Shown here in pieces: positions 1-22,885 of a stretch of DNA of 31,609 nt. This stretch comes from Polyangiaceae bacterium (GTDB lineage: Bacteria; Myxococcota_A; Polyangia; Polyangiales; Polyangiaceae), in NCBI GenBank assembly GCA_046596645.1, contig JBKJLX010000360.1, forward strand, positions 1 to 31,609, in the 5' to 3' direction. Position 1 is the first letter of the stretch. Every line of letters begins with the position of its first letter. The notes under the pieces were generated by a model, which was given only the letters and a program-made list of their open reading frames with translations, ran no database searches and was not told the origin of the DNA. Both the position numbers and the translations under genes were made by a program.

Positions 1-1685
1 GGTTGCGCGGGCCCCACGGGGCGGGCTCGCTCATCCTTGTCCTCGCCCGCCGCGAGGTCGAACGTCGCGCTGGCGTCCCGGTCGAAGGTCACCATGCGCC
101 GCTCGGTCTTGAAGCCCTTCGCCTCGACGACGATGCGGTGGGTCATTCCGTCGGCGGGGAAGCGGCCCTCGAAGGGGTTGGTGGGGACCGGCGTGTCGTC
201 GATGGTGATGCGCGCGTCAGCCGGCCGAGCCTCGACGCGGACCGACACCGTCTTCGCGGCGGCGAGCCTGGTGCCGCCGCCATCGTCCTCGGAGGCGGTC
301 GGCGGCGTCGGCGTGACGACCCCGCCCGGGGTGGCGGCTGCGCGCTCCGGTGACGCCTCGTCGTTGCCCCGCCGGACCGCGAAGAGCCCGATCGCGACGG
401 CGCCCACGACGGCGGCAGCGATCCACGCCCTGCGGCTCCTCGCCGCGCCTTCGCTCACCTCACCCCGATCGGGGCTGGTGCTGCGCGGAGCGATCCCCGA
501 CGGGGTGCCCCGGCTGGACTGCGTCGCGCTGTGCGGACCGGTGCTGTCCCCCTCGGCGGGAGCCACGCTGGTCGGCGTCCCCGACCGAGGCGCGCTGGTC
601 GAGCCGGTGCCGAGCACCTGGAGGCCGTCGGTGGAGGAGGTGACGTTCGATGGATCGTGGATGTCGACCAGTTCGGCGCCCGTGTGCGCGCGCGCCAGCT
701 GGCGCTCGACGATGACGCGGATCTGCTCGCGCTTGTCGGCGAAGAGACCCTGGACGAAGGACGCCACGTCGCGCGAGCTGCAGCGAGCGTGCTCGCGGAT
801 GAAGGCGTCGAGGTCCTCACGGAGCTCGGCGGCGGTCGGGTAGCGGTCGTCTCGGTCCCGCGAGAGCGCCCTCATGCAGATGCGCTCGACCTCCTCCGGG
901 ACCTCGGGGGCCACCGTGCGCGGGCTGGCCGGGGTCGTGCTGGCCAGCTTCTCCAGGACCTGCACGTCGGTGAGCCCCGCCCACAGACGCTGGCCGGTCA
1001 GGAGCTCCCACAGCACCGAGCCCAGGGAGAAGATGTCGGCGCGGCGGTCGACGTCCTCGCATCGCGCCTGCTCGGGCGCCATGTAGTGCAGCTTGCCCTT
1101 GAGGACCCCGGTCCGCGTCTCGTAGGAGCGCGTCGCCGCCTTGGCGATGCCGAAGTCGACCAGCTTCGTGATCCCCTCGTAGGTCACGAAGATGTTGTGC
1201 GGGGTGGCGTCACGGTGGACGACGTGGAGGGGCGAGCCGTCGAAGTCCTTCAGCTCGTGCGCGTGGTGCAGCCCCGCCAGCGCCTCGCTGATCATGTGCA
1301 GGTAGATCGGCATGGGCACCGGCGCCTTGCGCCGGTGCGACCGGCTGAGGATCCGGTTGAGCGGCTGGCCCTCCAGGTACTCCATGGCGATGAAGAACTC
1401 GCCGTCGACCTCGCCGACCTCGTTCGTCTGGACCACGTTGGGGTGGTTGAGGCGGGCCGCCAGGCGCGCCTCGTCCAGGAACATCGGCAAGAACTCAGGC
1501 TCTTCGGCCAGGCTGGCGCGAAGACGCTTGATGACCACGAGCTTGTTGAAGCCGACCAGCCCCCGGGCGACTGCCAGAAATACATCTGCCATACCGCCTT
1601 GCCCCAGGGAGGCGAGGAGCTGGTACTTGCCGAAGACGGCCGAGGGAGCTGCCGGGGGGCGCTCGGAACTGCGGGCTTCTCCCAT
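1..1685 (-). CDS. Ser/Thr protein kinase, Hanks-type. Partial: the N-terminal kinase domain is in the window and the C-terminus continues past position 1. The catalytic loop is atypical, HRDATPHN.
   Basis: The reverse-complement translation starts at the ATG complementary to 1685-1683: [39 protein letters not shown]...VVIKRL...[11 protein letters not shown]...DFGIAKA...YMAPEQ. The Gly-loop, VAIK lysine, DFG and APE motifs are all present. There is no stop in this frame down to position 1, which explains why the ORF is missing from the track. A GAGGGG RBS-like motif lies about 10 nt upstream. Confidence 0.85.
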
Positions 1686-1707
1686 GGCAGGCCCCTCGAT
1701 CCTAGTC

Positions 1708-4700
1708 CTACTTGGTCTCGAAGAGCATCGGCTGGCGGCCGTTCAGGAACTGCACCACCAGCGGCGCCGCCTGCGCGGGGAGGATCTCGAAGCGAGCGCC
1801 GAAGCCGGGCTGGACCCAGGGTGGGCCCTGCTCGCCCTGGGGGCGCGTCCACTCCACCACCGCCGTGGCCTCGAAGTCGACGCCGCCGGGGAGCGTGACC
1901 CTGAGCGCGACCTTGGTGCCGAGGTCGGGCGCGCGGCGGTAGGTCGCGATGAAGATTCCACCCTCACGCACCACGTCTGCCCCCTGCTTCCAGCGGTAGA
2001 AATTGCTGGCGCTCACCTGGTCGATCACGGCGTCGAAACGCGGCATGCCGTCGGTGCGGCTCCCGCTCCCAGCCCCGCTCCCTTGCTGTACGCGCGACCC
2101 CAGGTCGCGGATCAGCTTCGACAGCTCGTCGAGCCGCGCCTCGACCCGATAGACGGCCGACCCCACCTCCGCGATCGCGGCGCCCTGCTTGCCCTTCGAC
2201 CGGCTGAGCGCCTGCTGCGCACGGGCGACCGCATCGCTCTCCGCCGCCGACATCCCCGGCCGCTGGACGGGCAGGGGAACGCCGCCGTCGTCGTCGCCGG
2301 CGACCACCACCTGTTGATGGATGACCGAGGGACCGGCGGGGCCGTGGCCCGCCTGCATCGCGGCAGCTTGCCCCATCTGGCTCATCTGCGCGCCCGCGGC
2401 GGCGACCCGGGCGGCGACGTCGCGCGTCTGCGCAGCGGCCTGCTGGATCTGCGCGGCGTGCTGCGCCTGCTGCGCGCCGAGCTGCTGGAGGCGCGCCAGC
2501 TGCTGACCCTGCTCGCGCGCTGCGTTCTGCGTCGCCGTGACCACCTCGCGCGCCTGGGCGGCCGCGGTCTGGACCTCCTTCAGCGCGGCGGTCTGCTGGG
2601 TGTGCACCTCGCCGATGCGCGCGATCTGCGCCTGCACCTGCTGGCCGGCGTCGGCGACGGCGCGCGCCAGCGCCTCGGCCTGCACCTGCTGGCCGGCGGC
2701 CTTCTCGGCGCCGGTGTCGCGGACGCTCTCCGCCAGCGCCTGCACCACTGGTGCGAGCGAGCTCTCCACCGTCGCCAGCTGCTGCGCCAGGAGCTCGGCC
2801 ACCGCCGGGTCCTGCTCGACGCGGATCAGCGTCTCCTTCGAGGCGATGGTCTTCTCCAGCTTCTGCAGCGCGGCCGCGATCGCCTGCGCGCGCTGGGCGG
2901 CGGTGTCGCCGCTCGACTTCGCCGCGTCGAGCAAGCCGCGGCGGATTCCCTCCAGCTGCTCGCCCAGGCCGGCCAGGGTGCCAGTGAGGCGCGACACCGG
3001 ATCGTCCTGCTTGCCGCCCATCATCTTGACGCGGACGTAGCCCTTCTTGATCTCCTCCCAGCGCTCGGACTTCTCCGGCGTCATGCGCCCGCGCATCTCG
3101 TACAGCTTCAGGAGGTTGTTCTCGGCGCCGGAGGTGAGCGTCTGCGACTCGCCCGCGTAGTGATCGTCGACGAGCGCCTCGACCTCCACCGGGGTGTGCG
3201 CCGACACCACCTTCTCGGTGATCTTGTTCATGTTGCGGTAGCTGCCCTGCAACTTGAACGGGGGCTCGGTGCGGTAGTTGTCGTCCTGCGACGCCGAGGC
3301 GATGTACTGCATGTTCACCTTCAGCAGCGTCTCCTGCACGCGGAACATGTGCTGGAGGACGGCGACGATCTCCTGCACCTCGGCGGCGGAGTAGCCGTAG
3401 GACAGCTCGCTCGCCGGCACCGGCTCGCCGCGCGCCATGCGGATGAGCTTGTGCAGGTCCGCCGGGTCGCGCCCGGAGAGCGGCGCCAGGACGCGGTTCG
3501 AGGTGAGCGCGTTCTCCACGTACGACAGCGCGAAGAGGTCGCCCTTGCCGTCGAGGATGTCGCCGAGGTTGTAGGTGTCGGCGCGGTTCGCGAGCATGTC
3601 CGGGATGCGGAACTTCTCGCCGGTCTCGGTGTACGGGTTGCCGGCCATGACCACGGCGAACTTCTTGCCGCGCATGTCGTAGGTGCGCGTCACCCCGCGC
3701 CACACGCCCTCGATCTTCCGCTGCGCGTCGCAGAGGCTGATGAACTTCTGCAAGAGCTCCGAGTGCGTGTGCTGGATGTCGTCGAGGTAGAGCATCACGT
3801 TGTTGCCCATCTCGAGCGCGAGGTTGATCTTCTCGACCTCCTGCCGGGCGGTGGCGTTGGGCGCCTCCGCCGGGTCCAGCGACTTCACCTCGTGGCCCAG
3901 CGCCGGGCCGTTGATCTTCATGAAGACCAGGCCCAGGCGGTTGGCGACGTACTCCATGAGCGTCGTCTTGCCGTAGCCGGGCGGGCTGATCAGGAGGAGC
4001 AGGCCCATCAGATCGGTGCGCTTGGTCGCGCCCGCCGCCCCCATCTGTTTGGCGAGGTTGTCGCCGACCAGGTGCAGGTACACCTCGTCGATGAGCCGGT
4101 TGCGGACGAAGCTCGACATGATGCGCGGCTTGAACTCTTCGAGCCGGAGGCGCTTCTTGTGCTCGTCCAGCACGTCCTGCCGGAGCTTGCGGAAGGCGCG
4201 GAAGCGCGGGACGTGACCGTGCACCCAGCGGTCGAGCCTCGCCAGCATCTCGTCGAGGCGCAGGTGGAGCGCCTGCTGCTTGATGCGCGGGTGCTGACCG
4301 AGGAGGCCGCTCACCGTGGCCTCCACGTTGGCGGTCGACACGTCACGGTCGACCTTGCGATCGGTCGCCACCAGGGCCGACGCCTCCAGCACCGCGTGCT
4401 GGTGGCCGGCGAGGTCGCCCTTGGTGGTGCAGAGCGCCTCGATCCACGAGCGCACCAGGGCCAGGCGCGCGCCGGGAAGCTTCTCCAGCGTCCGCAGGTC
4501 CTCGTCGAAGTCGCGGCGTGACCCGGCGCGGTCGAGCTCGGAGAGCAGCGCCGCCTGCAGCGTCGACGCAGAGCCGCTCACCACGAAGCGAGGGCGCTCG
4601 GTGCCCAGCTCGACCACCAGGTAAAGCGAGGCGATGCGCACGTCGCCGTCGGGGATGCTCAGGCCCAGCTGCTGCGCGGTGGCAGTCAGGGCGGGGACGA

Positions 4701-7700
4701 GCTCGGCGGCGATCTCGTTCTGCGCGGTGACGACGCCCAGCGTCGCACGGAGGCGGGCGGCGCTGCGGCAGCGGCGGTGGAGGGGGATGCGATCGGGCTC
4801 GGCCAGCTGCGACCACAGGAGCCCGCCCAGGGCGCGCGGGTCGGGCGCAAAGCGGAGGAGGCCTGCGGCGCGCTGCATCCCCACCAGCTTCTCCAGGATG
4901 AGCACGGCGTCGTGGTCGTGCACGCCGCGCTCGTAGCCCTCGTCGTGACGATCCTGGGAGAAGGCGCGCACCACCTCCAAGAGACCGCCGTCTCGGGTGT
5001 GCGCCTCGATGAGCTTCTCCAGCGTGAGGCCGCTGGCGCCGGCCTCCGCCGCGAACAGGATCACCGCCGCCAGGTACTCGCCGCGGTAGACGTTGGGCCC
5101 CTCGGAGGCGAGCGCCTGGTCCCACAGGTCCCGCGCCTCCTCCAGGCGCGGCTCGTTCAGCGGCTCGTAGAAATCGGTGCCGGTGAGGTGGAGGAACAGC
5201 ACCTCCTTGTTCGTATTATCGTCTCGCCTGGGCACCAGCGTCAGCTCGACCGCCTGGGTCGAGACGTTGAAGCGGTGCTTGCCGAGCTTGATGACGTTGT
5301 CGCCATCCTCGAAGAGCTCGGTCTTGTCGCGCAGGGTGCGCAGCGACTCCTGCCGCGCCGCCTTGAGCTTGCTCTCCAGCTCGTCGGCCTTGACCGACTC
5401 GCCCATGTCCATGAGCTGCTTCGCGAGGTCGCGAAGCTTGAGCACCATGGAGTCCGACGCGAAGTAGCTCGCCAGGTCGTCGGCGGTCTTGAGGGTGTGC
5501 GCCTTGCGCACGATGCCCTGGATGACGCGCTCCGCCGCCGACAGGATGTTCTGCGCGCGACGCTGGCGCTCGTCGAGCAGCTGCTGCCGCTTGCCGGCAA
5601 AGGCGTCGGCGACCTCCTCCCGCTTCTGGGTCAGGTCGCCGAGGAACTCGTCGAACTCGCCGAACTTCCCCTCCAGCTCCTCCAGCTGGAGCAGCAGCCT
5701 CGACAGCTGCTCGTCGCACTTCTCCGGCGTGTCGCAGACGGAGATGGCGCTCACCACCGACTGGCCGAACAGCTTGAACTGGGCGAGGAACTCCTGGCGC
5801 CCCTCGGCGGAGGAGAGCTCCTTCTTCCGCACCTGGAGGACGGCGCGGGCGCGGTTCAGCTGGGAGTACGCCTCGCTGATGCCCTCGAGGATGCGCGTCC
5901 TCTGCGTGGGGTCCTCGATGGAGAGGCCGCCGATGACGTCGGAGAGGACGCCCAGGCCCTCGTTCACCTTGTCGACGTCCTCCGCGATCGGCTTGAGCTC
6001 GGTGGCCTTGGCCACGGCGCCCACCCGGGTCGGCACGTCGGCGAGGCGACCGACCAGGGGCTTCAGCGACTCGGGGTGGAGGAGGAACTCGACCGCGGCC
6101 TTCGACACCTTGTCGAAGCTCTCGACGATGTGCTTCTCCAGCTCGTCGATGCGCGCGGTGTTCATGTACCGCATCTCGCGCAGCGTGATGAGGTGACCGC
6201 GCTGCTTGCGGAGCGCCGAGAGCGTCCCCATGAAGTCGTCGACGGTCCTGTGATCCTCCGGCCGGAGGCCGGAGACCAGGCGGTCCTGCGCGGCCTCCGA
6301 CTCGGCGAGGGACTCCGCCGCGCGCTTCTTGACCGCGGCGACCTTCTCGAACTCGTCGATGACGAGCGCGGCGGTCTCGCGCACCTTCTGGATGACGGAG
6401 AGGAGATCGCCCGCCTCGGCGTGGCCCAGCCAGTAGTACGCGTCGACCATGCGACGCGCGCTCTGCACGGCGTCCTCGTAGGTCTGGCGGGTGGGGTTCT
6501 CCACGCTCGCCACCTTCACGATGGTGAAGGCCTCGCTGATGCCGCGCACCAGCTCGGCGTTGCCGACCTTGGAGAGGTAACTGCCGTCGGTCGGCGCCTT
6601 GGCCGCGTGCTCCTGCGTCACGAACGGCGTCTGCCAGATCTGCACCGGGTGCACGGTGGTCGGCTCGTCGTTCAGCACCTTGAAGAGGACGATCTTCCCG
6701 TCGTCGAAGAGGCTGTAGCCGTGGCAGGGGAGGGGGTTCTGCACCTCCTTGCGGATGAGGTTGTAGGGGAGGAGGAGGTAGTGACCGTCGACCTCGCGGT
6801 AGTAGACGTAGAGGATGTCCTCGCCGTTGGGCGACTTGACCACGCGATCGAAGACCGAGTCCTTCGAGATCTCGGCGTCGAAGACCTTGAAGTCGCCGGT
6901 GCGCAGGTAGTAGCCGCCGGGAAAGATGATCCCCTGGTCTTCCGGCAGCTGCAGGCACGACAGGCCGATGGCGTCGATGCGCACCACGGTCTTGGTGCGC
7001 GTGTTGAAGACCAGGTGGCGGTACGTCTCCTCCCGGTACGGCTTGATGCGCAGGAGGATCAGCGAGCCGAGCCGCGCGTAGAACACCTCGGCGTCGTCGA
7101 GGCTCTGGTTCTTGTCCTCGACCGGCTCGCGCCACACGCCCCGCCCGTCGCGGGTGTTGTTCTCGATCTTGACGGTGAGATCGCCGCCGACGGTGTCGAC
7201 GAAGACCTCGTCCTCGATCGCGTAGTGCGGGTGGTCCCCGGAGATCTGATCCTCCCGGGTGACCGCGGTCCACTCGAAGTCGAACTGGCGCGCGAGGCGG
7301 TTGTCGTCCTCGCCTCGGGCGTCGATGAACTTGATCGCCCCGCCCTTGTCGATGCCCCAGCGGAAGACCTTCTGATCGGAGAGCTTCTCTCCCGCCTGGA
7401 AGACGGCGATGACGCGGGTGTCGGTGGTCCGCACCTGGAGGAGCCGCGTGCCCTTGGTGTAGCGATAGAGGTCGGTGAACTCCTTGAGGAACGCCGCGTC
7501 GGTCAGGAAGTGACCCGGCGGGATGGGCAGCTCACCCAGGTCGAAAGCACCGGGCGCCGTCTCGACGAACTGGTGCACCGCGAAGACGTCGGCGACGACG
7601 GTCTCGGTCTTCAGACCGATGAGGACGTTGTAGCCGAAGACCATCTGGCCCCCGACCTGGCGGATGTCGCGCGGGACGCAGCTGTGGTCGGTGCGGATGC

Positions 7701-7911
7701 GCTCGGTCGCGACCAGAGCGAGCGCGGAGCCGCCGAAGGTCTTGGTCCGCTGCGCGTTGAGCGCCTCGGTCTTCTTCGCCAGCCCCGCGCAGTGATCGAG
7801 CAGGCGCTGGCGGATGACGTCGTAGCTACCGCCCTCCAGCGCGCTCGCGCTCTCGCTCTCCCCCGCGGCCGCCCCGCTCGGAGCGGCGGTCTTCACCCCG
7901 TCGTCGGCCAT
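1708..7911 (-). CDS. Giant (2067 aa) multidomain protein. It has an N-terminal beta-rich region of about 520 aa, long coiled coils, and an AAA+ ATPase core that looks like the MoxR/AAA_5 dynein-related subfamily. The Walker A Lys is at about residue 1315 (nt ~3967-3969), Walker B is LYLDDIQ, and the sensor region is AVVMAGNPYTE. A Q/A-rich low-complexity coiled coil follows (aa ~1700-1830), then a C-terminal ~110-aa beta domain that may be PilZ-like.
   Basis: This is the ORF-track entry 1708..7911 (-). The start ATG is preceded by GGGGGCGGAG. Motifs read directly from the translation: LLLLISPPGYGKTTLMEYVANRL and MLYLDDIQHT...AVVMAGNPYTETGEKFRIPDMLANRADTY. The C-terminus reads ...ATYRRAPDLGTKVALRVTLPGG...GFGARFEIL. 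The gene is tightly linked to the upstream flotillin (36 nt) and the downstream kinase (22 nt). Confidence 0.85.
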   Translation of the reverse strand: MADDGVKTAAPSGAAAGESESASALEGGSYDVIRQRLLDHCAGLAKKTEALNAQRTKTFGGSALALVATERIRTDHSCVPRDIRQVGGQMVFGYNVLIGLKTETVVADVFAVHQFVETAPGAFDLGELPIPPGHFLTDAAFLKEFTDLYRYTKGTRLLQVRTTDTRVIAVFQAGEKLSDQKVFRWGIDKGGAIKFIDARGEDDNRLARQFDFEWTAVTREDQISGDHPHYAIEDEVFVDTVGGDLTVKIENNTRDGRGVWREPVEDKNQSLDDAEVFYARLGSLILLRIKPYREETYRHLVFNTRTKTVVRIDAIGLSCLQLPEDQGIIFPGGYYLRTGDFKVFDAEISKDSVFDRVVKSPNGEDILYVYYREVDGHYLLLPYNLIRKEVQNPLPCHGYSLFDDGKIVLFKVLNDEPTTVHPVQIWQTPFVTQEHAAKAPTDGSYLSKVGNAELVRGISEAFTIVKVASVENPTRQTYEDAVQSARRMVDAYYWLGHAEAGDLLSVIQKVRETAALVIDEFEKVAAVKKRAAESLAESEAAQDRLVSGLRPEDHRTVDDFMGTLSALRKQRGHLITLREMRYMNTARIDELEKHIVESFDKVSKAAVEFLLHPESLKPLVGRLADVPTRVGAVAKATELKPIAEDVDKVNEGLGVLSDVIGGLSIEDPTQRTRILEGISEAYSQLNRARAVLQVRKKELSSAEGRQEFLAQFKLFGQSVVSAISVCDTPEKCDEQLSRLLLQLEELEGKFGEFDEFLGDLTQKREEVADAFAGKRQQLLDERQRRAQNILSAAERVIQGIVRKAHTLKTADDLASYFASDSMVLKLRDLAKQLMDMGESVKADELESKLKAARQESLRTLRDKTELFEDGDNVIKLGKHRFNVSTQAVELTLVPRRDDNTNKEVLFLHLTGTDFYEPLNEPRLEEARDLWDQALASEGPNVYRGEYLAAVILFAAEAGASGLTLEKLIEAHTRDGGLLEVVRAFSQDRHDEGYERGVHDHDAVLILEKLVGMQRAAGLLRFAPDPRALGGLLWSQLAEPDRIPLHRRCRSAARLRATLGVVTAQNEIAAELVPALTATAQQLGLSIPDGDVRIASLYLVVELGTERPRFVVSGSASTLQAALLSELDRAGSRRDFDEDLRTLEKLPGARLALVRSWIEALCTTKGDLAGHQHAVLEASALVATDRKVDRDVSTANVEATVSGLLGQHPRIKQQALHLRLDEMLARLDRWVHGHVPRFRAFRKLRQDVLDEHKKRLRLEEFKPRIMSSFVRNRLIDEVYLHLVGDNLAKQMGAAGATKRTDLMGLLLLISPPGYGKTTLMEYVANRLGLVFMKINGPALGHEVKSLDPAEAPNATARQEVEKINLALEMGNNVMLYLDDIQHTHSELLQKFISLCDAQRKIEGVWRGVTRTYDMRGKKFAVVMAGNPYTETGEKFRIPDMLANRADTYNLGDILDGKGDLFALSYVENALTSNRVLAPLSGRDPADLHKLIRMARGEPVPASELSYGYSAAEVQEIVAVLQHMFRVQETLLKVNMQYIASASQDDNYRTEPPFKLQGSYRNMNKITEKVVSAHTPVEVEALVDDHYAGESQTLTSGAENNLLKLYEMRGRMTPEKSERWEEIKKGYVRVKMMGGKQDDPVSRLTGTLAGLGEQLEGIRRGLLDAAKSSGDTAAQRAQAIAAALQKLEKTIASKETLIRVEQDPAVAELLAQQLATVESSLAPVVQALAESVRDTGAEKAAGQQVQAEALARAVADAGQQVQAQIARIGEVHTQQTAALKEVQTAAAQAREVVTATQNAAREQGQQLARLQQLGAQQAQHAAQIQQAAAQTRDVAARVAAAGAQMSQMGQAAAMQAGHGPAGPSVIHQQVVVAGDDDGGVPLPVQRPGMSAAESDAVARAQQALSRSKGKQGAAIAEVGSAVYRVEARLDELSKLIRDLGSRVQQGSGAGSGSRTDGMPRFDAVIDQVSASNFYRWKQGADVVREGGIFIATYRRAPDLGTKVALRVTLPGGVDFEATAVVEWTRPQGEQGPPWVQPGFGARFEILPAQAAPLVVQFLNGRQPMLFETK

Positions 7912-7947
7912 GACTCCGCCCCCGCTCTGGATGGCATCGCGCCCCGC

Positions 7948-10143
7948 TCAGGTCAGGCTGTCGATGCCGAGGTCACGTGCCTCGGCGGCGAGCGACTGCA
8001 GCTTCTTGCGGGTCGCCTCGTCGCGGCCCGCCATCATCGAGGCGAGCAGCGACGTGATGCTGAGCTGCGAGCCGGTGCCCACCGCAGGGCCCTCCAGGAT
8101 GTCCTTCAGGTCCTTCGGCATGTTGCGGGCGCCGGACATGTAGTCGCCGAGCACGTGCTTCAGCACGTCGCTCTGGTCGATGGCGCCGTCGACGCCCTGG
8201 CCCACCGAGAGCGCGCGCATGAACTTGTCGAAGAACTGACCGTCGCCGCCGACGATCTGGATCTTCGCGTGGTCGAGCGCGTGGGAGAGGATGGTCGCCT
8301 GCTGGGCGGCGACCTTCTCCCGGACGTCGAGGGCGTGCATCGCGATGTCGCGCTGCGCGTCCAGGCGGATGCGGAACTCCTCGTGCCCGCGGCTCTCGGA
8401 GTCGAGCTGCTTCATCGCCGCCATCTTGGCGCTGATGCCGTCGGCCTCGGCGGTCAGGCGCAGGCGCGTCGCGCTGGCCTCGGCGGCGCCGGTCTTCTCG
8501 ATCGCGCCTGCCGTCGCCTCCTGGACGCGTGCGGCGGCGTGGCCCTTGGCCTCGGCGCCGGTCGCCTCGGCGTTCAGCATCTCCCGCACGACCAGTGCGT
8601 CGGCGATGCCCTTCTTCTCGATGGCGGCGGCCTCAGCCTCCTGCACGCGGACCCTGGCCAGGCCCTGCTTCTCCTCGCCCTGGGCGGCGGCCTGCATCTT
8701 CTCGATGAGGACGCGCGCCTCGACCAGGCCGAGCTTCTCGATGGCGGCGGCGTCCGCCTCCTTCACCTTCACCTCGGCGAGGCCGGCGGCCGCCGTCTCC
8801 GCCTGGATGCCCTCGGCGAGGCGGATCTTGGCGCGCGCGGCCTTGTCGCTCGACTCCAGGTCGGCCTCGGCCATGAGCACCTTCTTGCGCGCTTCGATCT
8901 GGGCCACCTGCTCGCTGGCCTCGGCGGCCTTGACCTGCTTGACCAGGTGGTCGGCGGCGGAGGCCTCGGCAGCGATGGTGATGATCTGCTTCTCGCGGTT
9001 CGACTGGGAGAGGGTGCGCAGATCCTTGATGCGCTCCTCCTCCTCCGCCACCGTCTTGTCGACGGCGATGCGCCCGCGGATGACGTCGGCGATCTCCTTC
9101 TTCTTGATCTCGACGTCCTTCTGCTTGGCGATGGTCTGCAGCTCGAACTCGCGCTCGCGCCCGACCTGCTCGATCATGCGCGCCTTCTCGGTGCGCTCCT
9201 TCTCGACGGCGACCTCGCGCTCCTTGTTCTGGCGCGCGACCAGGGTGGCGCGCTCCTTTCCCTCGGTCGCGACCAGGACCTCCTCCTCGTTCTTCTGGCG
9301 GATGAGCATGGTCTGCTTGTGCTCGGCCTCGGCGATGCGGCGGGCCTCGTTCTCGTGGCGGGCCTGGGCGACCGCGATCTCGGCGTTCTTCTTGGCGTCG
9401 GCCTCGGCGCGCGCCTTGTCGAACCTGAAGATCGCCTCGTCGGAGGCGAGGTTCTGCGACCCCATCTCCATGCGCTCCTTCTGGCGCAGGTCGTTGGTCT
9501 TCACGTTCTGGATCACCGTCAGCTCGGTGATCTTGCGGATGCCCTCGGCATCCATGATGTTGTCCTTGTCCAGCGTCTCGATCGGCGTCTGCTCGAGGTA
9601 GTCGATCGCGCAGTCGTCGAGCACGAACCCGTTCAGGTCGGTGCCGATGACGCGGATGATCTCGTCCTTGAAGCCCTGGCGCTCGGCGTAGAGGCTCTCG
9701 AAGTTCATCATCTTACCGACGGTCTTCAGGGCCTCGGAGAACTTCGCGACGAAGAGCTCCTGGATGACCTGCGGGCTCGAGGCGCGCGCGCAGCCGATGG
9801 CCTGCGCGACCCGCAGCACGTCGTTCGCGGTCTTGTTCACTCGCACGAAGAACGTGACCTTGATGTCCGCGCGGATGTTGTCCTTGCAGATCAGGCCGTC
9901 CTTGCCATCGCGCGCGAGCTCGATGGTCTTGACGGAGATGTCCATCGTCTCGGCGCGGTGGATGATCGGGTAGACCGTCTTGCCCGTGAACGTGACGAGC
10001 GGCTCGTCCTGCATCGTGTTCACGATGAGCGCGGTGCCCTGGTCCACCTGGCGGTAGAACTTGGCGACCATCACCAGCAGACCGAAAATGATGACTGCCA
10101 GGGCGCCGATGCCCAGCAGCAGGAGAATGATCTCGTCCGACAT
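7948..10143 (-). CDS. Flotillin-like SPFH/Band-7 protein (YqiK/FloT-like). It has an N-terminal TM helix, an SPFH domain and a long Glu/Ala-rich coiled-coil region with EA repeats.
   Basis: This is the track ORF 7948..10242 (-). The start was moved to the internal ATG (complement of 10143-10141, MSDEIILLLLGIGALAVII...), which is preceded by GAGGTGAGAGAAGCC. The SPFH region reads ...YPIIHRAETMDISVKT...VLRVAQAIG.... The C-terminal coiled coil carries ...AEVKVKEADAAAIEKLG...VQEAEAAAIEKKG..., the typical flotillin EA repeats. Confidence 0.9.
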   Translation of the reverse strand: MSDEIILLLLGIGALAVIIFGLLVMVAKFYRQVDQGTALIVNTMQDEPLVTFTGKTVYPIIHRAETMDISVKTIELARDGKDGLICKDNIRADIKVTFFVRVNKTANDVLRVAQAIGCARASSPQVIQELFVAKFSEALKTVGKMMNFESLYAERQGFKDEIIRVIGTDLNGFVLDDCAIDYLEQTPIETLDKDNIMDAEGIRKITELTVIQNVKTNDLRQKERMEMGSQNLASDEAIFRFDKARAEADAKKNAEIAVAQARHENEARRIAEAEHKQTMLIRQKNEEEVLVATEGKERATLVARQNKEREVAVEKERTEKARMIEQVGREREFELQTIAKQKDVEIKKKEIADVIRGRIAVDKTVAEEEERIKDLRTLSQSNREKQIITIAAEASAADHLVKQVKAAEASEQVAQIEARKKVLMAEADLESSDKAARAKIRLAEGIQAETAAAGLAEVKVKEADAAAIEKLGLVEARVLIEKMQAAAQGEEKQGLARVRVQEAEAAAIEKKGIADALVVREMLNAEATGAEAKGHAAARVQEATAGAIEKTGAAEASATRLRLTAEADGISAKMAAMKQLDSESRGHEEFRIRLDAQRDIAMHALDVREKVAAQQATILSHALDHAKIQIVGGDGQFFDKFMRALSVGQGVDGAIDQSDVLKHVLGDYMSGARNMPKDLKDILEGPAVGTGSQLSITSLLASMMAGRDEATRKKLQSLAAEARDLGIDSLT

Positions 10144-10316
10144 GGCTTCTCTCACCTCGAAGGGCCGCAAACTGCGGACCGTCCCGCGACGCCGACCCGG
10201 AAATTCCCCGGCGGCGCCCCCCGCGGGCTGGCCAGGGTACACGAGGTGCTCGGCCCGTCCTCAAGGCTTTCCCACGGCTCTGCGACGGCACCTCGCAGGC
10301 CCTCGCGCCGCGCTCT

Positions 10317-11150
10317 TCAGCGCTTGCCGAGCTGCGCCTCGAGCTCGGCGACTCGACGCAGAGCAGCCGCTGCGCGGGCGGACTCCTGGTCGGCGCGGGC
10401 GGACTCCTGGTCGGCGCGGGCGGACTGCTGCTCGGCGCGGGCGGACTCCTGCTCTGCGCGAGCCGTGGCCAGCACCGCGCCGGTCGTGGCCAGCGCGGCC
10501 CGCTCCTCCCCGCTGGGCAGCACCGCGCCGTCGGGGCCGATCCAGCGGAGGAGCGGCGCCCCGACGTTTCCGGACCGACCGGGCACGACGCCCAGCGCGA
10601 GCCCCGTCACGCGCGACGGGAATCGACCCTCGGCGTCGGGCGAGCGAGCTCGGTAGCTCCTGGTCGAGGCGTCGAGCTCGAAGCCCTCGAGGCGGCTCGA
10701 GAAGGGGTCGAACAGGTAGTACTCCGCGACGTGGAGGAGCTTGGCGTAGATCCGCATCTTGTCGCCGCGGTCGACGTGCTCGGTGGAGGGCGAGGTGAGC
10801 TCGATCACGAGATCGGGGCCGCGACCGTCCTCCTCCCACACGACCCAGCTCTTCCGCTCGCGCTTGACGGTGTCCATGACCACGAAGACGTCGGGGCCGC
10901 GCACGTCGACGTTCCTGGCCTGGAGCTCGCTGTAGTAGACGAACATGTTGCCCGCGACGTACACGTCGTCGCGATCGCGCCACGCGTCGTTCAGCGTGGA
11001 GATGAGCAGCACCATCTGCTCGCGGTGACGTTCGGTCTCCATGGGCTCCCCGTCGTCGCAGGGGAGGTCCTCGCCGCGCGGCGGCGGCCTGAAATCGGGG
11101 TCGATGGGTGTCATCTCCGCGGTCACAGGGTACCTCCCGCGCGGGGTCAT
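10317..11150 (-). CDS. Uma2 family (DUF820) restriction-endonuclease-like protein. Its C-terminal tail is a tandem heptapeptide repeat, (ARAEQES/ARADQES)x4.
   Basis: Track ORF 10317..11150 (-). The translation reads ...MTPIDPDFRPPPRGEDLPCDDGEPMETERHREQMVLLISTLNDAWRDRDDVYVAGNMFVYY...IYAKLLHVAEYYLFDP..., which is the Uma2/DUF820 signature layout. An alternative start is the internal ATG at ~11114, which has GGAG upstream. Confidence 0.75.
   Translation of the reverse strand: MTPRGRYPVTAEMTPIDPDFRPPPRGEDLPCDDGEPMETERHREQMVLLISTLNDAWRDRDDVYVAGNMFVYYSELQARNVDVRGPDVFVVMDTVKRERKSWVVWEEDGRGPDLVIELTSPSTEHVDRGDKMRIYAKLLHVAEYYLFDPFSSRLEGFELDASTRSYRARSPDAEGRFPSRVTGLALGVVPGRSGNVGAPLLRWIGPDGAVLPSGEERAALATTGAVLATARAEQESARAEQQSARADQESARADQESARAAAALRRVAELEAQLGKR
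10374..10457 (-). repeat. Four tandem copies of the 21-bp unit gcgggcggactcctggtcggc. They encode the (ARA[ED]QES)n tail of the Uma2 gene above.
   Basis: Read directly from the sequence: near-perfect 21-bp units at 10374-10457. Confidence 0.8.
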
Positions 11151-11352
11151 GGCGAACCGCGTGCCGTCGCGCTGGGCCTCCGGAGCAAGGGCCGCGCCGT
11201 GGTCGGCGGGTGGCGGCGTCCCGGTGCGGGGTGGCGGCCGCCACTGCGACCCACGCGACGAGCTGCGCGCTGACGCCGCGTCGTCGCAGCCGGGGCAGGG
11301 CGGAGGTTAACGACAAGCCTGAGCCGATGCGCTGGAGCTCGTGCGCCGCTCG

Positions 11353-12201
11353 TCAGCGCGCCGGGGGGCTGCTCCGCGGCTTCGCGACGACGTCCTCGGC
11401 GCGCACGGTCGTCGCCGCAGCGCTCAGCCATTGCTCGAGGACCTGGCGGTTCTGCTGCCCGGCCACGGCGTCGTGCACGGGCGCGGGGTCGATGCCGCGA
11501 GCGGTCAGCACCGCGAGGATGCTGCTGCGAAGCGTGGCCTCGCCTCCTTCCTGGCGTCCTTCTTCGCGGCCTTCTTCGCGGCCTTCCTCGCGGCCTTCCT
11601 CGCGGCCTTCCTCGCGGACGGCGTCGAGGCCGGCGTAGCCCCTGCGCTGGAGCAGGTTCCGGAGCGTGGCGTCGTGGGCGGCGTCGCGATCGAAGAGGAC
11701 GGCGATCGGCACCGGGTTCTCGAGGATGCCCGGGGCGTGGAGCACGGCCCCCTCGCGGGCGACGCGCATCGCCGCGCCCGGCTCGTGGACCTCGACCCGG
11801 GGCTCGCCATCGAGGCGAGCCACCCAGATGAGCTTCGTGCCGGCGCCGAGCAGCTCCGCGATCTTGAGCTGCAGGGCGTCTTCGTCCTGGCCGACGTCGG
11901 CGTACTCCACGGCCAGCGGTGGCGCCTTCGTCGCCCAGCCAGGCGCGTCCTCGATGGGCCCGACCGCGACGTCTGGCGCGCGAAGCATCCCGGGCGCGGT
12001 CGAGATGCCCAGATCGACGCCGGCGGCCGCGACCTTCGGATCCGTCTCGAGCGCCGCGCCTCCGACGAGGTTGCGGGTGCTGCCGCGACGCCCCGTGGGG
12101 AGGCACAGTAGCGCGTGGCCGTCCGACAGCTCGTAGGGATCCTTCGAGCGGAGCTGGCTCGCCTGGAAGGGGCCGGGGGCGAGGTTTGGACGCCGCGTCA
12201 T
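11353..12201 (-). CDS. Uma2 family (DUF820) endonuclease-like protein, second paralog. It carries an internal (REEG)x6 tetrapeptide repeat.
   Basis: Track ORF 11353..12303 (-). The start was moved to the ATG complementary to ~12201 (MTRRPNLAPGPFQASQLRSKDPYELSDGHALLCLPTG...). The translation contains ...KLIWVARLDGEPRVEVHEPGA... and then REEGREEGREEGREEGREEGRQEG. Confidence 0.7.
   Translation of the reverse strand: MTRRPNLAPGPFQASQLRSKDPYELSDGHALLCLPTGRRGSTRNLVGGAALETDPKVAAAGVDLGISTAPGMLRAPDVAVGPIEDAPGWATKAPPLAVEYADVGQDEDALQLKIAELLGAGTKLIWVARLDGEPRVEVHEPGAAMRVAREGAVLHAPGILENPVPIAVLFDRDAAHDATLRNLLQRRGYAGLDAVREEGREEGREEGREEGREEGRQEGGEATLRSSILAVLTARGIDPAPVHDAVAGQQNRQVLEQWLSAAATTVRAEDVVAKPRSSPPAR
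11548..11607 (-). repeat. About 5-6 tandem copies of the 12-bp unit gccttc(c/t)tcgcg. They encode (REEG)n in the second Uma2 gene.
   Basis: Read directly from the sequence at 11548-11607. Confidence 0.8.
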
Positions 12202-12226
12202 GACCTCGCAGCGTAGCAGCGGATGC

Positions 12227-12480
12227 TCACTCCAGGCCGATGGCGATGGTGAATGCGCGCGCCAGTGCCTCGTCGGCGGCGGAGGCGGGTCGGGGCAGCG
12301 CATCGTGGAGCCCGCTCTGCCAGCTCATGGCGTGGAAGAGCTCGTGGGCGAGCACGGCGAGACCTTCGCGTGCGTCGAGCCATCCTCCTCGAGGACGTCG
12401 TTCGGCACGTAGACGAAGTGCGAGCGGTGCTCGGCGTAGCCCCAGATGCCGATACGGGCCAGACCGCCGTGGCCCCACAA
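12227..12480 (-). pseudogene. Possible frameshifted remnant of a small HExxH metallopeptidase-like gene. Two adjacent minus frames join to give ...GIWGYAEHRSHFVYVPNDVLEEDG / WLDAREGLAVLAHELFHAMSWQSGLHDA....
   Basis: HELFH lies in the 12227..12511 (-) ORF and GYAEH lies in the C-terminal end of the 12325..13134 (-) ORF. The frames switch near the GAGGAGGATGGCTCG run at ~12395-12405. The region is otherwise an unexplained ~400-bp gap between the short SPFH gene and the second Uma2 gene. Confidence 0.25.
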
Positions 12481-12605
12481 GCGTTGCGAGGTTCGTGATC
12501 GCGCCGGACATTGTCTGTCCGCACGCGGGGGCCCTTTTCGCCGCGCTGGCTGATCAGCAGCGGCAGGCGGCGCCGGACGCAGCACGTCGAGCCCGACTCG
12601 AACGC

Positions 12606-13181
12606 TCACCCACGGTAGGCGGAGCCGACCCCCACCCGCACGCCGGTGATGGCGAGGTCGCCGAGGGTGAAGCCGTCGAGGTCGGTCCCGACCTCCTCGG
12701 TCACCCGGTCGCAGAGCTCGCTGCGATCGCGATCGATCGCGTCCGCGCGAAGGTCGCGCGCGACCGACTCCAGGGCGTGGTTGAGCCTGGGGAGGAAGCG
12801 CTGCCGCACCGCCTCGGGGTCGGACGCCGCGGCCGCGCCCAGGATCTGCGCTGCGCGCAGGACGTCGTCGCGCGTCTTGTGGATGCGCAGGTGGAACGTC
12901 GCGGTGAGCTCGACCTGCTCGTCGTCGCGGGTGCGCAGCGACGCGTCTCCGCGGCGCTCGATGGCGACCAGGTGCTCGCGTAGGCTCACCCGCTCCATCC
13001 GGTGGAGCATCGGGATAACGACGGCGGCGTCGAAGGCCACCAGCGACCCGTGGGGCGACGGTCGGGTCACCACCAGCGCCTCGTCGGGGGCTGCCTTCTT
13101 GTAGAACGCGGCGATCATCACGACCAGGCCGCACAGGATGAGCCCGATCAGGCCGACGCCGAGAAGGACGGTGAGCGCCAC
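12606..13181 (-). CDS. Short SPFH/Band-7 domain protein of about 191 aa: one TM helix plus an SPFH core. It stops where flotillins begin their coiled coil.
   Basis: Correct frame is the C-terminal part of track ORF 12606..14390 (-). Starting from the GTG at 13181, which overlaps the NfeD stop (cTGAcgGTG), it reads (M)ALTVLLGVGLIGLILCGLVVMIAAFYKKAAPDEALVVTRPS...LRIHKTRDDVLRAAQILG...GTDLDGFTLGDLAITGV.... This is homologous to, but divergent from, the N-terminus of the 7948..10143 flotillin. Confidence 0.7.
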   Translation of the reverse strand: MALTVLLGVGLIGLILCGLVVMIAAFYKKAAPDEALVVTRPSPHGSLVAFDAAVVIPMLHRMERVSLREHLVAIERRGDASLRTRDDEQVELTATFHLRIHKTRDDVLRAAQILGAAAASDPEAVRQRFLPRLNHALESVARDLRADAIDRDRSELCDRVTEEVGTDLDGFTLGDLAITGVRVGVGSAYRG

Positions 13182-13183
13182 CG

Positions 13184-14047
13184 TCAGCGCCGCGCTCGTT
13201 CGGCGCCCGTCTCTCTCTCGGCCAGCACCGCCTCGACCTCGGCCCTGGCCTCGCGCAGCGCCTCGGCGTTCGCTGGCGCGCCGGGGTCGGCGAGGATGTC
13301 GGTCATCTTCTCGATGCGGAACAGGCCACCCTCCTCGTCGACGATGAGGCAGCGATCGCCGCGCCGGAGGTCCAGCGCCGGATCGGCGCGCACCTGGACG
13401 ATGAGGCCGGCGCCGCCGTCCTCCAGGGTGGCCTGGCCGAAGCCCTGGTCGACGCGGCCCGTCGACACCACCGCCACCCGACCCACGAGGTGGACGTGGC
13501 GCTTGGCGTGCCGCGTCTGGAAGAGCGGCGCGATGGGGCGGACGGCGAACGAGGTCAGGATCAGGGACAGGATCGCGGAGCCGAGCAGGATGGGGATGCT
13601 CAAGAGCCACGCCGGCAGGCCGAGAGCCCCCGCGAAGGTCATCACCGCGAGCGAGCTGAGCATCCAGCCGAAGAGCGAGAAGAAGGAGACGACGACGGTC
13701 ACCGGCGCGTCGCGCAGGCGCAGGGCCGAGGCGAGCGTGGCGAGGACCCCGCTGTCGGGGAGGTCGGCGTCCACGTCGTGCCCGTCGAAGCCGTCGGCCA
13801 CACCGCTCTTCGCCTCCAGCGCACCCTTGACGCTGCCCTCGAGGACGCCCTTTGCGGCGCCCTCGAGCGCTCCCTTGGCGGCGCCCTCGAGGACGCCCTT
13901 GGCTGCGCCGTCGATGGCGCCGTCGGCGGCGCTGTCGAGGTCGACGGCGCCGACGAGGACGAAGACCCAGTAGATGAGCGATAGGCCGAGCAGGACGGTG
14001 AAGATCACCGTCGGGAACGACGCCGCAATCGCCAGGATCCCCGCCAT
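13184..14047 (-). CDS. NfeD-like (YqiJ/YuaF-like) membrane protein. It has N-terminal TM helices, an internal (AAKGVLEG)n repeat linker, more TM helices and a C-terminal NfeD OB-fold.
   Basis: Track ORF 13184..14047 (-). The translation reads MAGILAIAASFPTVIFTVLLGLSLIYWVFVLVG...; ...HLVGRVAVVSTGRVDQGFGQATLEDGGAGLIVQVRADPALDLRRGDRCLIVDEEGGLFRIEKM is the typical NfeD beta-barrel. Sitting directly upstream of an SPFH gene is the canonical NfeD-SPFH operon arrangement. Confidence 0.8.
   Translation of the reverse strand: MAGILAIAASFPTVIFTVLLGLSLIYWVFVLVGAVDLDSAADGAIDGAAKGVLEGAAKGALEGAAKGVLEGSVKGALEAKSGVADGFDGHDVDADLPDSGVLATLASALRLRDAPVTVVVSFFSLFGWMLSSLAVMTFAGALGLPAWLLSIPILLGSAILSLILTSFAVRPIAPLFQTRHAKRHVHLVGRVAVVSTGRVDQGFGQATLEDGGAGLIVQVRADPALDLRRGDRCLIVDEEGGLFRIEKMTDILADPGAPANAEALREARAEVEAVLAERETGAERARR
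13823..13925 (-). repeat. About 3.5 tandem copies of a 24-bp unit (ggcgccctcgaggacgcccttggc-like). They encode the (AAKG[VA]LEG)n repeats inside the NfeD gene.
   Basis: Read directly from the sequence at 13823-13925. Confidence 0.7.
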
Positions 14048-14127
14048 GGCGGCATGGTGGCACGGCGCGCTGGACGATTGTGGGTTTGACCGGAATCGGG
14101 GCGCGCTCGTACCCTCGACCGCGCTGT

Positions 14128-14655
14128 ATGGCGAACATCGAAGTGACCCAGAGCCGGCCTGACGAGGCGGCTCCGGACCCGCAGCCCATCGACCCCAAGC
14201 TCAAGCTGCTCCTGAGCATCGGCGCCATCCTCGCGGCGCAAGGGGGCGAGGACTCGGAGTTCGCCAGCCTGAAGAACCAGGCGCGAGAGCTCGCCACACG
14301 CGATCCCATCGACACGCTGCTCGCGACCGTCCTCGGCGGCGGGCTCCTCTTCCACCACCTGGAGAAGGGCAAGAACCCACGCTGCAACACGGTGTGGGAC
14401 GCGATCCTCTACGTCGCGACGAGCCTCTCGGTCGGCTACGACGACGTGTTTCCCAAGACCCAGGCGGGCAACGCCCTGGCGTCCGCGATCCACACGTTCG
14501 GCCCGGCGCTCGCGGCGCAGGCCCTGCAACCGCCGGCCTCCCGCGCCGCGGCGCGCGACCGCGAGGCGCATCGTACCAACGAGGAGCTTCTCGCGGTCAA
14601 TCGCGCCATCCTCCAGCGCCTCTCCGAGATCTCCGCATCGCTTCAGAACAAGTGA
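14128..14655 (+). CDS. Small two-TM protein resembling a potassium channel pore (KcsA-like). The selectivity filter is non-canonical: SVGYDD in place of TVGYGD.
   Basis: Frame of track ORF 14080..14655 (+). The start was moved to the ATG at 14128 (MANIEVTQS...). The translation reads ...IDTLLATVLGGGLLFHHLEKGKNPRCNTVWDAILYVATSLSVGYDDVFPKTQAGNALASAI.... The spacing matches KcsA's ...ALWWSVETATTVGYGDLYPVTLWGRCVAVVVMVAG... pore-helix/filter layout. Confidence 0.6.
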   Translation: MANIEVTQSRPDEAAPDPQPIDPKLKLLLSIGAILAAQGGEDSEFASLKNQARELATRDPIDTLLATVLGGGLLFHHLEKGKNPRCNTVWDAILYVATSLSVGYDDVFPKTQAGNALASAIHTFGPALAAQALQPPASRAAARDREAHRTNEELLAVNRAILQRLSEISASLQNK

Positions 14656-14854
14656 CCGGCGACCCTCCGGAGGCATCCCCCTCGACGGGTCGACCTTTCG
14701 CGCCAGCGTTCCGCGTACGTCGGCGCACAAAGCGATAGCATGACGGGCGTTGACCTCCGCCAAACCTCCCAAGCCGCAACTGGGCGCGAGCGGACTGCCC
14801 CAGCTGGACGACTTCGAGCCGGACGTCACGACGACCCGTCAGACCGATCCGACC

Positions 14855-15697
14855 ATGTCGGGACCCGCGTCGCGCATGAGCGCGCGTCCCATGCTCACCG
14901 TCGTCTCCGGACTGGAGGCGGGGCGGATCGTCGCGTTCGATCGCGACGAGATCGTCCTCGGCCGCGGTTCGACCTGCCACGTGGTGCTGCCGGACGACGG
15001 CATCAGCCGCATGCACGCGGTGGTGCGCCGACGGGGTGACGAGTACGTCCTCGAGGATCTGCGGTCGAAGAACGGAACGTTCATCGAAGGTGAGCCGGTC
15101 GTTCTCCGGGCCATCGGGCTCGACGTCACGTTCCAGCTGGGACCCAACGTCGTGGTGCGGCTCTCGCTCATGACCCAGGCGGAGGCGCGGCTCGCCCTCC
15201 AGCTCTACGACTCCTCGATGCGTGACCCGCTGACGCAGTGCTACAACCGCCGCTACTTCTTCGAGCGGCTGCGCAGCGAGATCGCCTACGCCGAGCGGCA
15301 CCGCAGCGCGGTCAGCCTGGTGGTGTTCGACTTCGACCATTTCAAGCGCCTGAACGACGAACACGGTCACCCCACCGGGGACGACGTGCTGCGGCTCGGG
15401 GCGGCGCGCGTGCTGGCCGCTCTCCGCACCGAGGACGTGCTCGCCCGCATCGGCGGCGAGGAGTTTGCGGTCGTCCTCCGCGGCATCGAGCACGGTCATG
15501 CGGTCCTCTGCGCGGAGCGCGTGCGACGCGCGGTCGAGGCGGGTGTCTTGCCCGTCCGCGCGACCATCAGCGCCGGCGTCTCGACCACCGACGACATGCC
15601 CGCCTCGACCCCCCAGGGCCTGTTCGAGATCGCCGACGGCCGGCTCTACGAGGCAAAGGCCGCTGGGCGCAACCGGGTCTGCGGGCGCACCACCTGA
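14855..15697 (+). CDS. FHA-domain diguanylate cyclase, FHA-GGDEF. Both the GGEEF active site and an RxxD I-site are intact.
   Basis: Frame of track ORF 14750..15697 (+). The start is probably the ATG at 14855 (MSGPASRMSARPML...); 14750 would be a TTG. The FHA part reads GRGSTCHVVLPDDGISRMHAVVRRRGDEYVLEDLRSKNGTFIEG. The GGDEF part reads ...FDFDHFKRLNDEHGHPTGDDVL...RTEDVLARIGGEEFAVVL.... Confidence 0.85.
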   Translation: MSGPASRMSARPMLTVVSGLEAGRIVAFDRDEIVLGRGSTCHVVLPDDGISRMHAVVRRRGDEYVLEDLRSKNGTFIEGEPVVLRAIGLDVTFQLGPNVVVRLSLMTQAEARLALQLYDSSMRDPLTQCYNRRYFFERLRSEIAYAERHRSAVSLVVFDFDHFKRLNDEHGHPTGDDVLRLGAARVLAALRTEDVLARIGGEEFAVVLRGIEHGHAVLCAERVRRAVEAGVLPVRATISAGVSTTDDMPASTPQGLFEIADGRLYEAKAAGRNRVCGRTT

Positions 15698-15747
15698 GCC
15701 ATCGGCACGCCGCCACGTCAGCTTGACGCCCTTCTCGGCCACGGAGG

Positions 15748-20782: not shown

Positions 20783-20863
20783 GCGCCTCTCGTACCCCGG
20801 CCGGGCCACCCATACAAATGTCACTCCGCCTCCACGCGCCTTCGGTGGGTAAGGTTCCGCGCG

Positions 20864-22876: not shown

Positions 22877-22885
22877 ACCCGATCG

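Follow-up and report, generated by a model that had tools for sequence, protein, structure and literature searches.

A conserved flotillin/DUF3686 ATPase module with local additions in a Polyangiaceae contig

A contig of 31,609 nucleotides (nt) from a Polyangiaceae bacterium (JBKJLX010000360.1, assembly GCA_046596645.1; the whole contig is referred to as the window) carries in its first 14,047 nt a run of minus-strand genes for flotillin-related membrane proteins, two Uma2-type proteins, an AAA+ protein of 2067 residues (the giant) and a serine/threonine kinase. The original prediction, made from the letters alone, saw in this array a candidate for an undescribed machine. The locus raises the question of which of these genes form a unit and what that unit may do. 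We find that the conserved core consists of three genes, encoding a YqiJ-like membrane protein, a dedicated long flotillin subfamily and the giant, which contains the Pfam domain DUF3686. The explanation that we favor, with a probability of roughly 0.6, is that the window holds a PspA-less form of a flotillin/AAA+ envelope-stress operon that has been decorated locally, with the giant acting as an ATP-driven remodeller on a flotillin scaffold. In this Polyangia-like genome, the operon appears to have gained a truncated SPFH paralogue and to have been split by two Uma2 genes, and it happens to precede a receptor kinase.

A three-gene core and its membrane proteins

The surroundings of the giant in other genomes carry this finding. 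A DUF3686 alignment, searched against a collection with one genome for each species, confirmed at least 592 matching stretches, and we kept the best 80 loci (from Myxococcota, Acidobacteriota, Planctomycetota, Actinomycetota, and Beta- and Gammaproteobacteria), in which neighbors were called by tblastn. In 68 of the 73 loci with enough upstream sequence, across five phyla, the gene directly ahead of the giant is a co-directional flotillin homologue that ends a median of about 76 nt before it; at a 69th locus (L020), the flotillin alignment simply stops earlier. Flotillin and giant therefore co-occur as conserved partners, as had been proposed from the window alone. Ahead of the flotillin, a YqiJ-like gene is present in 63 of 65 loci. 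At five loci that were looked up (Melittangium, Chondromyces and three close relatives), a protein of about 735 to 757 residues without a Pfam match sits immediately upstream of the giant. It is preceded by a single protein of about 250 to 330 residues at four of these loci and by two small genes (183 and 117 residues) at L007, and the genes downstream of the giant differ in all five.

Plasmids gave the same association from the opposite direction. In a plasmid collection, the N-terminal domain of the giant matched 13 records and the flotillin matched 314. The top 13 flotillin matches (304 to 548 bits, 77 to 96% coverage) were precisely the 13 giant records, at adjacent coordinates, and the other 301 were YqiK-like and scored at most 105 bits. 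The trio is annotated in pQBR103, in a Streptomyces plasmid and in a Hymenobacter plasmid. Together, the locus counts and this 13-of-13 reciprocal match define the three-gene core and its dedicated flotillin.

At a G+C content of 71%, raw lists of open reading frames (ORFs) from the window are noisy, and a promoter/terminator scan is uninformative. Frame analysis of G+C at third codon positions (GC3) identified seven credible genes in positions 1 to 14,047, all on the minus strand. They are listed in the order of transcription, with their probable counterparts among the Bac proteins of Pseudomonas aeruginosa:

13184-14047, minus strand: YqiJ/NfeD-like gene, 287 residues, GC3 0.94; probable BacC counterpart
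12606-13181, minus strand: short SPFH gene, 191 residues, in the same frame as a spurious 594-residue ORF (12606-14390)
11353-12303, minus strand: Uma2-like gene (Uma2b), with a (GREE)n repeat
10317-11150, minus strand: Uma2 gene (Uma2a), PD-(D/E)xK-type putative endonuclease
7948-10143, minus strand: long flotillin, 731 residues; probable BacD counterpart
1708-7911, minus strand: giant DUF3686 AAA+ protein, 2067 residues; probable BacE (PA3728) counterpart, called "DNA repair ATPase" in NCBI annotation
3-1685, minus strand: Hanks Ser/Thr kinase, at least 561 residues, running off the contig end

The original prediction had counted eight co-directional genes. Their shared direction stands, but the number does not: we found no ORF with coding-like GC3 in the gap at 12304-12605, and the eighth gene is thus a miscount. 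The spacings of 36 nt between flotillin and giant and 22 nt between giant and kinase were read correctly, and purine-rich motifs resembling ribosome-binding sites (RBS) precede the downstream gene at both junctions. At the other end of the array, the reported start/stop overlap between the "NfeD" and short SPFH genes is instead a gap of 2 nt; the two genes are adjacent, and the short SPFH gene starts with GTG. The remaining gaps measure about 300 to 400 nt (12304-12605), about 200 nt (11151-11352) and 173 nt (10144-10316). Because these large gaps flank the Uma2 genes, the operon-like spacing that had been ascribed to the whole array applies to only part of it.

The long flotillin consists of an N-terminal transmembrane (TM) segment, an SPFH domain, a Glu/Ala-rich coiled coil and a C-terminal region specific to the subfamily. 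It matches neither Band_7 nor Flot in Pfam, even at E ≤ 5; among 19 members of the subfamily, four pass Band_7, and the window protein is not one of them. We built a family profile from these 19 proteins, which occupy the same position in related loci. The profile aligned with Escherichia coli YqiK in hhalign (probability 99.9, E = 2e-31, 392 columns), and the pQBR103 flotillin, which passes Band_7, is 40% identical to the window protein by tblastn (41% in the A3 alignment). These two results establish that the window protein is a flotillin homologue. The same-position protein of Melittangium is 53% identical to it, and RefSeq annotates its positional counterparts in related loci as "SPFH domain-containing" or "flotillin family protein." YqiK covers the first ~445 of the 710 profile columns, leaving a C-terminal stretch of ~285 residues that is subfamily-specific. 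Two invariant motifs, H586-E587-E588 and G631-G632...D651, are found past the end of the YqiK alignment. Searches of the PDB with the single sequence and with the profile gave no match.

The product of the first gene has an N-terminal TM segment, a Gly/Ala-rich repeat loop, two or three more TM segments and a C-terminal OB-like domain. The protein had been labeled NfeD, but it matches no NfeD model, and we consider the name YqiJ/DUF1449-like to be more appropriate. Its family profile aligned with E. coli YqiJ (hhalign probability 90.8, E = 1e-6), Pfam YqiJ_OB gave a match below threshold (E = 0.016), and the protein is 39% and 40% identical to the same-position gene products of Melittangium and Chondromyces, respectively. 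No solved structure related to the profile turned up in a PDB search. An in-frame tandem repeat of 24/48 nt at 13813-13940 encodes the (GAAKGxLE)n units of the loop; in the alignment, this loop differs greatly in length among species.

The short SPFH protein contains only an N-terminal TM segment and a Band-7 domain (Pfam Band_7, 38.4 bits; cutoff, 23.6). It is 33% identical to residues 17-180 of the long flotillin (E = 2e-30), and this likeness identifies it as a truncated paralogue of the N-terminal TM and SPFH part of that protein. A Thermoanaerobaculia metagenome-assembled genome (L037, 5060-5686) and an uncultured deltaproteobacterium (L054, about 5099-5623) likewise have an additional short SPFH gene that separates the YqiJ-like gene from the flotillin, so we regard this gene as a recurrent optional accessory.

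The giant and a proposed remodelling model

A hidden Markov model search with the giant, which had been suggested as a check, returned three Pfam assignments: DUF3686 at residues 44-493 (6433-7782; E = 5e-190), DUF7902 at residues 615-698 (E = 2e-23) and AAA/AAA_5 at residues 1305-1428 (AAA_5, 31.5 bits; cutoff, 22). No TM segment is predicted in the giant, whereas both the flotillin and the YqiJ-like protein have them. The giant is a predicted soluble protein that is highly conserved and has intact nucleotide-binding motifs. Its best matches are from Polyangiaceae, and an exact-sequence look-up returned no record. Homologues form more than 5800 clusters at 90% identity and 747 clusters at 50% identity, and DUF3686 giants occur in at least six phyla, including in P. 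aeruginosa and Proteus mirabilis. The P. aeruginosa protein (P0273), whose cluster has 3222 member sequences, is 47% identical to the window giant across 1712 residues. Structure prediction, which had also been suggested, indicated a propeller-like N terminus and a PilZ-like barrel at the C terminus. The features of the giant are as follows:

Residues 28-59: long N-terminal helix (AlphaFold model)
Residues 65-427: beta-rich domain of beta strands (AlphaFold model)
The ~430 residues after the beta-rich domain: long helices (AlphaFold model)
Residues 874-917: small beta domain (AlphaFold model)
Residues 943-1182: helical domain (AlphaFold model)
Residues 1295-1470, approximately (3502-4029, minus strand): AAA+ core (motifs read from the sequence; Pfam AAA/AAA_5)
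Residues 1957-2060, approximately (1732-2043, minus strand): C-terminal PilZ-like beta-barrel (subthreshold TIGR02266 match and model)

The AlphaFold model of residues 1-1200 has a mean predicted local distance difference test (pLDDT) score of 81.9. With Foldseek, this model retrieved from the PDB just generic beta-propellers, such as DCAF1 WD40 and prolyl oligopeptidase, and proteins that combine a propeller with a solenoid, all at low TM-scores, suggesting that the DUF3686 beta-rich domain is a predicted beta-propeller without a close solved relative. A PDB sequence search with the domain gave no match. Nup155, clathrin and IFT-A were among the Foldseek matches, and we considered a protocoatomer-like reading of the propeller and helical region; it was dropped because the TM-scores were ~0.1.

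The model of residues 1201-2067 (mean pLDDT, 69.6) shows the AAA+ core, long helices, low-confidence Ala/Gln-rich segments and a confident C-terminal beta-barrel. The core contains a Walker A motif (GYGKT), a Walker B motif (LDDIQH), a sensor-1 asparagine and an arginine within ANRAD, and these motifs are invariant in 30 homologues from two phyla (Myxococcota and Pseudomonadota). The invariance in these 30 sequences extends to an unusual feature of Walker B (residues 1376-1381; window positions about 3769-3786), which has DD in place of the usual DE. By Foldseek, the structures closest to the core are RuvB, NorQ (of the MoxR family), MCM and Skd3/ClpB, with similar scores; a PDB sequence search produced a weak match to p97 that was confined to the Walker A region.

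The C-terminal beta-barrel is modeled with a pLDDT above 90, and TIGR02266 (PilZ-like) matches residues 1983-2056 at 42.6 bits, below the cutoff of 68.7. This end is conserved in Polyangia homologues only and is absent in Myxococcia and Pseudomonas. PilZ domains that bind cyclic di-GMP carry the canonical motifs RxxxR and (D/N)xSxxG. The PilZ-like end lacks RxxxR and, in all Polyangia homologues, has DVVxxGG in place of DxSxxG. A circuit of phosphorylation and cyclic di-GMP that would link this end to the Ser/Thr kinase and to the FHA-GGDEF gene beside the array was considered, and we downgraded it because of these missing motifs.

A membrane-anchored assembly of scaffold and ATPase is a reasonable reading of the three-gene core. 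SPFH proteins form ring or cage oligomers, and HflK/C encloses FtsH. This behavior, together with the ring behavior of AAA+ proteins, is the basis for a model of docking and remodelling. Under this model, the flotillin would be anchored by its N-terminal helix, and its coiled coil would drive assembly into a ring- or cage-shaped oligomer on the cytoplasmic side of the membrane, like the solved SPFH assemblies. The YqiJ-like protein would bind and stabilize this scaffold through its OB domain. The giant would dock on the subfamily-specific C-terminal region of the flotillin by means of its beta-propeller and helical arms, and its RuvB/MoxR-like AAA+ ring would spend ATP to assemble or disassemble the scaffold or to load its clients. 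Where the genome encodes PspA alongside, the PspA/ESCRT-III polymer could be one such client, and the giant may then be likened to FtsH in HflK/C or to Vps4 on ESCRT-III. We hold this remodelling mechanism tentatively and give it somewhat less than an even chance.

Several observations weigh against the explanation that we favor. Both NCBI and Pfam name the giant a "DNA repair ATPase," although we found no literature that supports the name. About 7% of loci (for example, Sorangium sp. So ce176 [L013], L056 and L077) have no flotillin in the 4 to 8 kb available upstream; in these cases, the partner may sit elsewhere, or the copies of the giant may stand alone. In the window itself, 3 kb of inserted genes part the YqiJ-like gene from the flotillin, so that stoichiometric co-expression of the two is not assured. 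The DD in Walker B may mean that ATP hydrolysis is slow or regulatory. Finally, reading the sequence by eye, we saw no evident aromatic pore-loop motif past the Walker A strand, which argues against simple threading of a polypeptide. Given the lack of an obvious pore loop and the DD Walker B, a conformational remodeller of the MoxR/RuvB type is more likely than a threading unfoldase.

The neighboring genes and the alternatives to the proposed envelope-stress module

The broadest alternative is the one that the original prediction put forward, in which the whole array, with kinase and Uma2 pair included, makes up a single new flotillin-associated ATPase/kinase machine that is regulated by phosphorylation. 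The seven genes are co-directional, and the kinase starts 22 nt past the stop of the giant with an RBS-like GAGGGG upstream; this spacing and motif make co-transcription with the giant plausible in this organism. The kinase is of the receptor type (Pkinase, 127 bits; TM segment at residues 419-440; extracytoplasmic PEGA domain) and would thus be membrane-anchored, and an FHA-GGDEF gene lies nearby. However, a co-directional kinase downstream of the giant occurs at none of 56 related loci. The three closest relatives (76%, 68% and 63% identity; loci L008, L006 and L007) carry other genes at that position, the 76%-identical relative (L008) included. Hanks kinases are very numerous in myxobacterial genomes, which makes a chance adjacency likely. 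We conclude that the kinase may be co-transcribed with the giant here and that it is not a conserved partner.

The Uma2 pair fares no better as part of such a machine. Uma2a matches the Pfam Uma2 model clearly (78.7 bits, E = 5e-22; cutoff, 27), and Uma2b falls below the cutoff at 22.8 bits. The C terminus of Uma2a is a coiled coil of seven-residue repeats, in which a 21-nt tandem repeat present in 4.2 copies (10372-10460) encodes ARA(E/D)QES heptads; in Uma2b, an in-frame 12-nt repeat in 6.7 copies (11538-11617) encodes (GREE)n. We detected Uma2 homologues at none of the 88 other related loci, and gaps of 173 to ~400 nt surround the two genes in the window. No direct or inverted repeats bounding the insertion were found, just the in-frame coding repeats. 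The pair is a lineage-specific insertion that splits the ancestral operon. Taken together, these results make a single machine that includes the kinase and the Uma2 genes very improbable.

The Uma2 genes also bear on a second alternative, that the module serves in anti-phage defense or conflict and causes abortive infection at the membrane with the Uma2 nucleases as effectors; the original prediction had left a link to defense open. The module is found on large plasmids, Uma2a weakly matches the PADLOC candidate PDC-S03, and in P. aeruginosa and some other Proteobacteria it also includes a PLD-family hydrolase. In another system, PspA has been reported as a conjugation target of the cyclase of a cyclic-oligonucleotide-based antiphage signaling system (PMC11153139). 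Against this, the supposed effectors are unique to the window, and PADLOC-DB 2.0 contains no match for the giant, the flotillin, the short SPFH protein or the YqiJ-like protein; the kinase matches generic kinase models only. The recurrent partners of the module are envelope-stress genes (PspA and YjfI), and the P. aeruginosa cluster, with its thousands of sequences, sits beside housekeeping genes such as recJ. The occurrence of the giant in many phyla and its high sequence conservation make it look like a stable chromosomal gene rather than one of a variable island. We consider a role in defense very improbable.

A third alternative takes the database name at face value: the giant would be a DNA repair ATPase, and its adjacency to flotillin would reflect membrane-tethered DNA processing. 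Pfam describes DUF3686 as "ATPase involved in DNA repair," and the NCBI name traces to this label. In structure, the AAA+ core comes nearest to RuvB and MCM, but protein remodellers of the NorQ/MoxR and ClpB types fit the fold equally well. Similarly, yaeQ and recJ come after the P. aeruginosa operon, but they do so only at the one Pseudomonas locus examined, whereas the conserved neighbors are membrane proteins in every phylum examined. Pfam and NCBIfam scans detected no DNA-binding or nuclease domain in the giant. Our literature searches found no paper on DUF3686 or PF12458, on the function of the giant ATPase, or linking "DNA repair ATPase" to flotillin. The chance that this name describes the function appears slight. 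Lastly, a coincidental juxtaposition without functional meaning appears true for the kinase and Uma2 genes, but for the trio, conservation in five phyla and the reciprocal plasmid match exclude chance, so that this account of the locus has a negligible probability.

The remainder of the contig carries further genes. Divergent to the YqiJ-like gene, on the plus strand, are a K+-channel-like gene (Ion_trans_2) and the gene for the FHA-GGDEF diguanylate cyclase (14002-15697). Two adjacent Mur-ligase paralogues (MurC/MurD-like) follow on the same strand at 15727-17241 and 17103-18620, with ORFs that overlap by ~140 nt as listed. In the 63%-identical relative (L007, 523-3364), the same Mur-ligase pair precedes the flotillin/giant module. 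The pair is co-directional with the module there and on the opposite strand in the window, which suggests local synteny with an inversion. Positions 18642-30617 encode a di-haem cytochrome c peroxidase (CCP_MauG), a Na+/H+ exchanger-TrkA fusion, an ALO-type FAD oxidase, an OPT transporter and a protein bearing Cu-binding repeats of the MopE type; around 17.2-22.9 kb, GC3 leaves the limits of the genes ambiguous.

Comparison with described systems

The arrangement had been taken to be undescribed, but two earlier studies, one computational and one based on operon mapping, contain the same trio. Ravi et al. (2024, mSystems; PMC11237479) described, by computation only, a PspA-associated operon composed of a CesT/Tir-like protein and PspA, a flotillin, a three-TM protein of the YqiJ/YuaF type and a beta-propeller AAA+ ATPase, along with widely distributed "abbreviated" operons that lack PspA. 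The window shares the gene order of this operon without its CesT/Tir-PspA dyad and PLD gene. A tblastn search of the 31.6-kb window with PspA, BacA and PLD proteins from Pseudomonas, pQBR103 and Hymenobacter found no homologue, and on this basis we assign the window to the abbreviated form. In the pQBR103 and Hymenobacter loci, PspA and a chaperone of the YjfI or Tir type are encoded upstream, and these operons are of the full form. On pQBR103, a Pseudomonas fluorescens megaplasmid, genes for YjfI, PspA, a rhomboid protease, DUF2491, DUF350, DUF1190 and glutathionylspermidine synthase precede the module (L003, 974-6098), and the locus merges two PspA operon classes that Ravi et al. (PMC11237479) gave separately. 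What the window adds to the described operon are lineage-specific variations: the truncated SPFH paralogue, the two Uma2 insertions, the Polyangia-specific PilZ-like end of the ATPase and the downstream kinase.

At the P. aeruginosa locus, the gene order is DUF2170, PspA, a 213-residue protein, a 688-residue protein, the DUF3686/AAA giant, PLD, YaeQ, RecJ and an M4 peptidase. Taking lasB to be PA3724 and recJ to be PA3725 in strain PAO1, we presume that this locus is PA3732-PA3727, or bacABCDEF. By position, BacE would be the giant, since the study of this operon (PMC10948618) gives no domain content for BacE. By position and homology, the trio of the window very probably corresponds to the conserved trio BacC/BacD/BacE. 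The bac operon differs from the window in also having BacA (DUF2170, a CesT-like chaperone), BacB (PspA) and BacF (PLD). It is a single transcript by reverse transcription-PCR and was proposed to be sigma-54 dependent; the phenotypes reported for bacA and bacB concern biofilm, rhamnolipid, swarming and virulence and are not about the ATPase (PMC10948618).

Given these precedents, the interest lies with the family, which was flagged by Ravi et al. (PMC11237479), rather than with this locus; the window itself shows that the module should be defined without the kinase and Uma2 genes. DUF3686 giants form a large, highly conserved family that is almost always wired to a dedicated flotillin. According to a 2025 review (PMC7619361), a Vps4-like regulator of PspA/ESCRT-III seems to be missing in bacteria, and the roles of the Band-7 partners of PspA are undetermined. 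The flotillin/giant module is an obvious candidate for such a regulator. The more specific proposal is that BacE-type giants are a bacterial equivalent, so far missing, of Vps4 (or of FtsH in HflK/C), which would dock on a dedicated flotillin cage and control how flotillin and PspA scaffolds are assembled or turned over, with inputs in Polyangia from the PilZ-like domain, the co-transcribed receptor kinase and the neighboring FHA-GGDEF cyclase. We regard this proposal as unlikely. If it were true, a Vps4-like giant in Polyangia would tie the dynamics of membrane scaffolds to Ser/Thr phosphorylation and nucleotide signaling.

Among better-known systems, YqiJ-YqiK of E. coli and YuaF-FloT of Bacillus subtilis are homologous two-gene cores in which a membrane OB-fold protein is followed by a flotillin, but E. 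coli K-12 has no giant ATPase after yqiK. HflK/C-FtsH and Vps4/ESCRT-III offer a functional analogy only, each combining an SPFH scaffold or an ESCRT-III/PspA polymer with an AAA+ machine. Unlike FtsH and Vps4, the giant has no protease domain, TM segment or MIT domain, and homology with them is limited to the AAA+ fold. With the MoxR/NorQ chaperones, the giant shares the AAA_5 match and the NorQ fold match; no partner with a VWA domain was present among the window ORFs scanned or the called genes of related loci. The giant differs from MoxR proteins in being six to eight times longer, in its unique N-terminal domains and in the DD of its Walker B motif.

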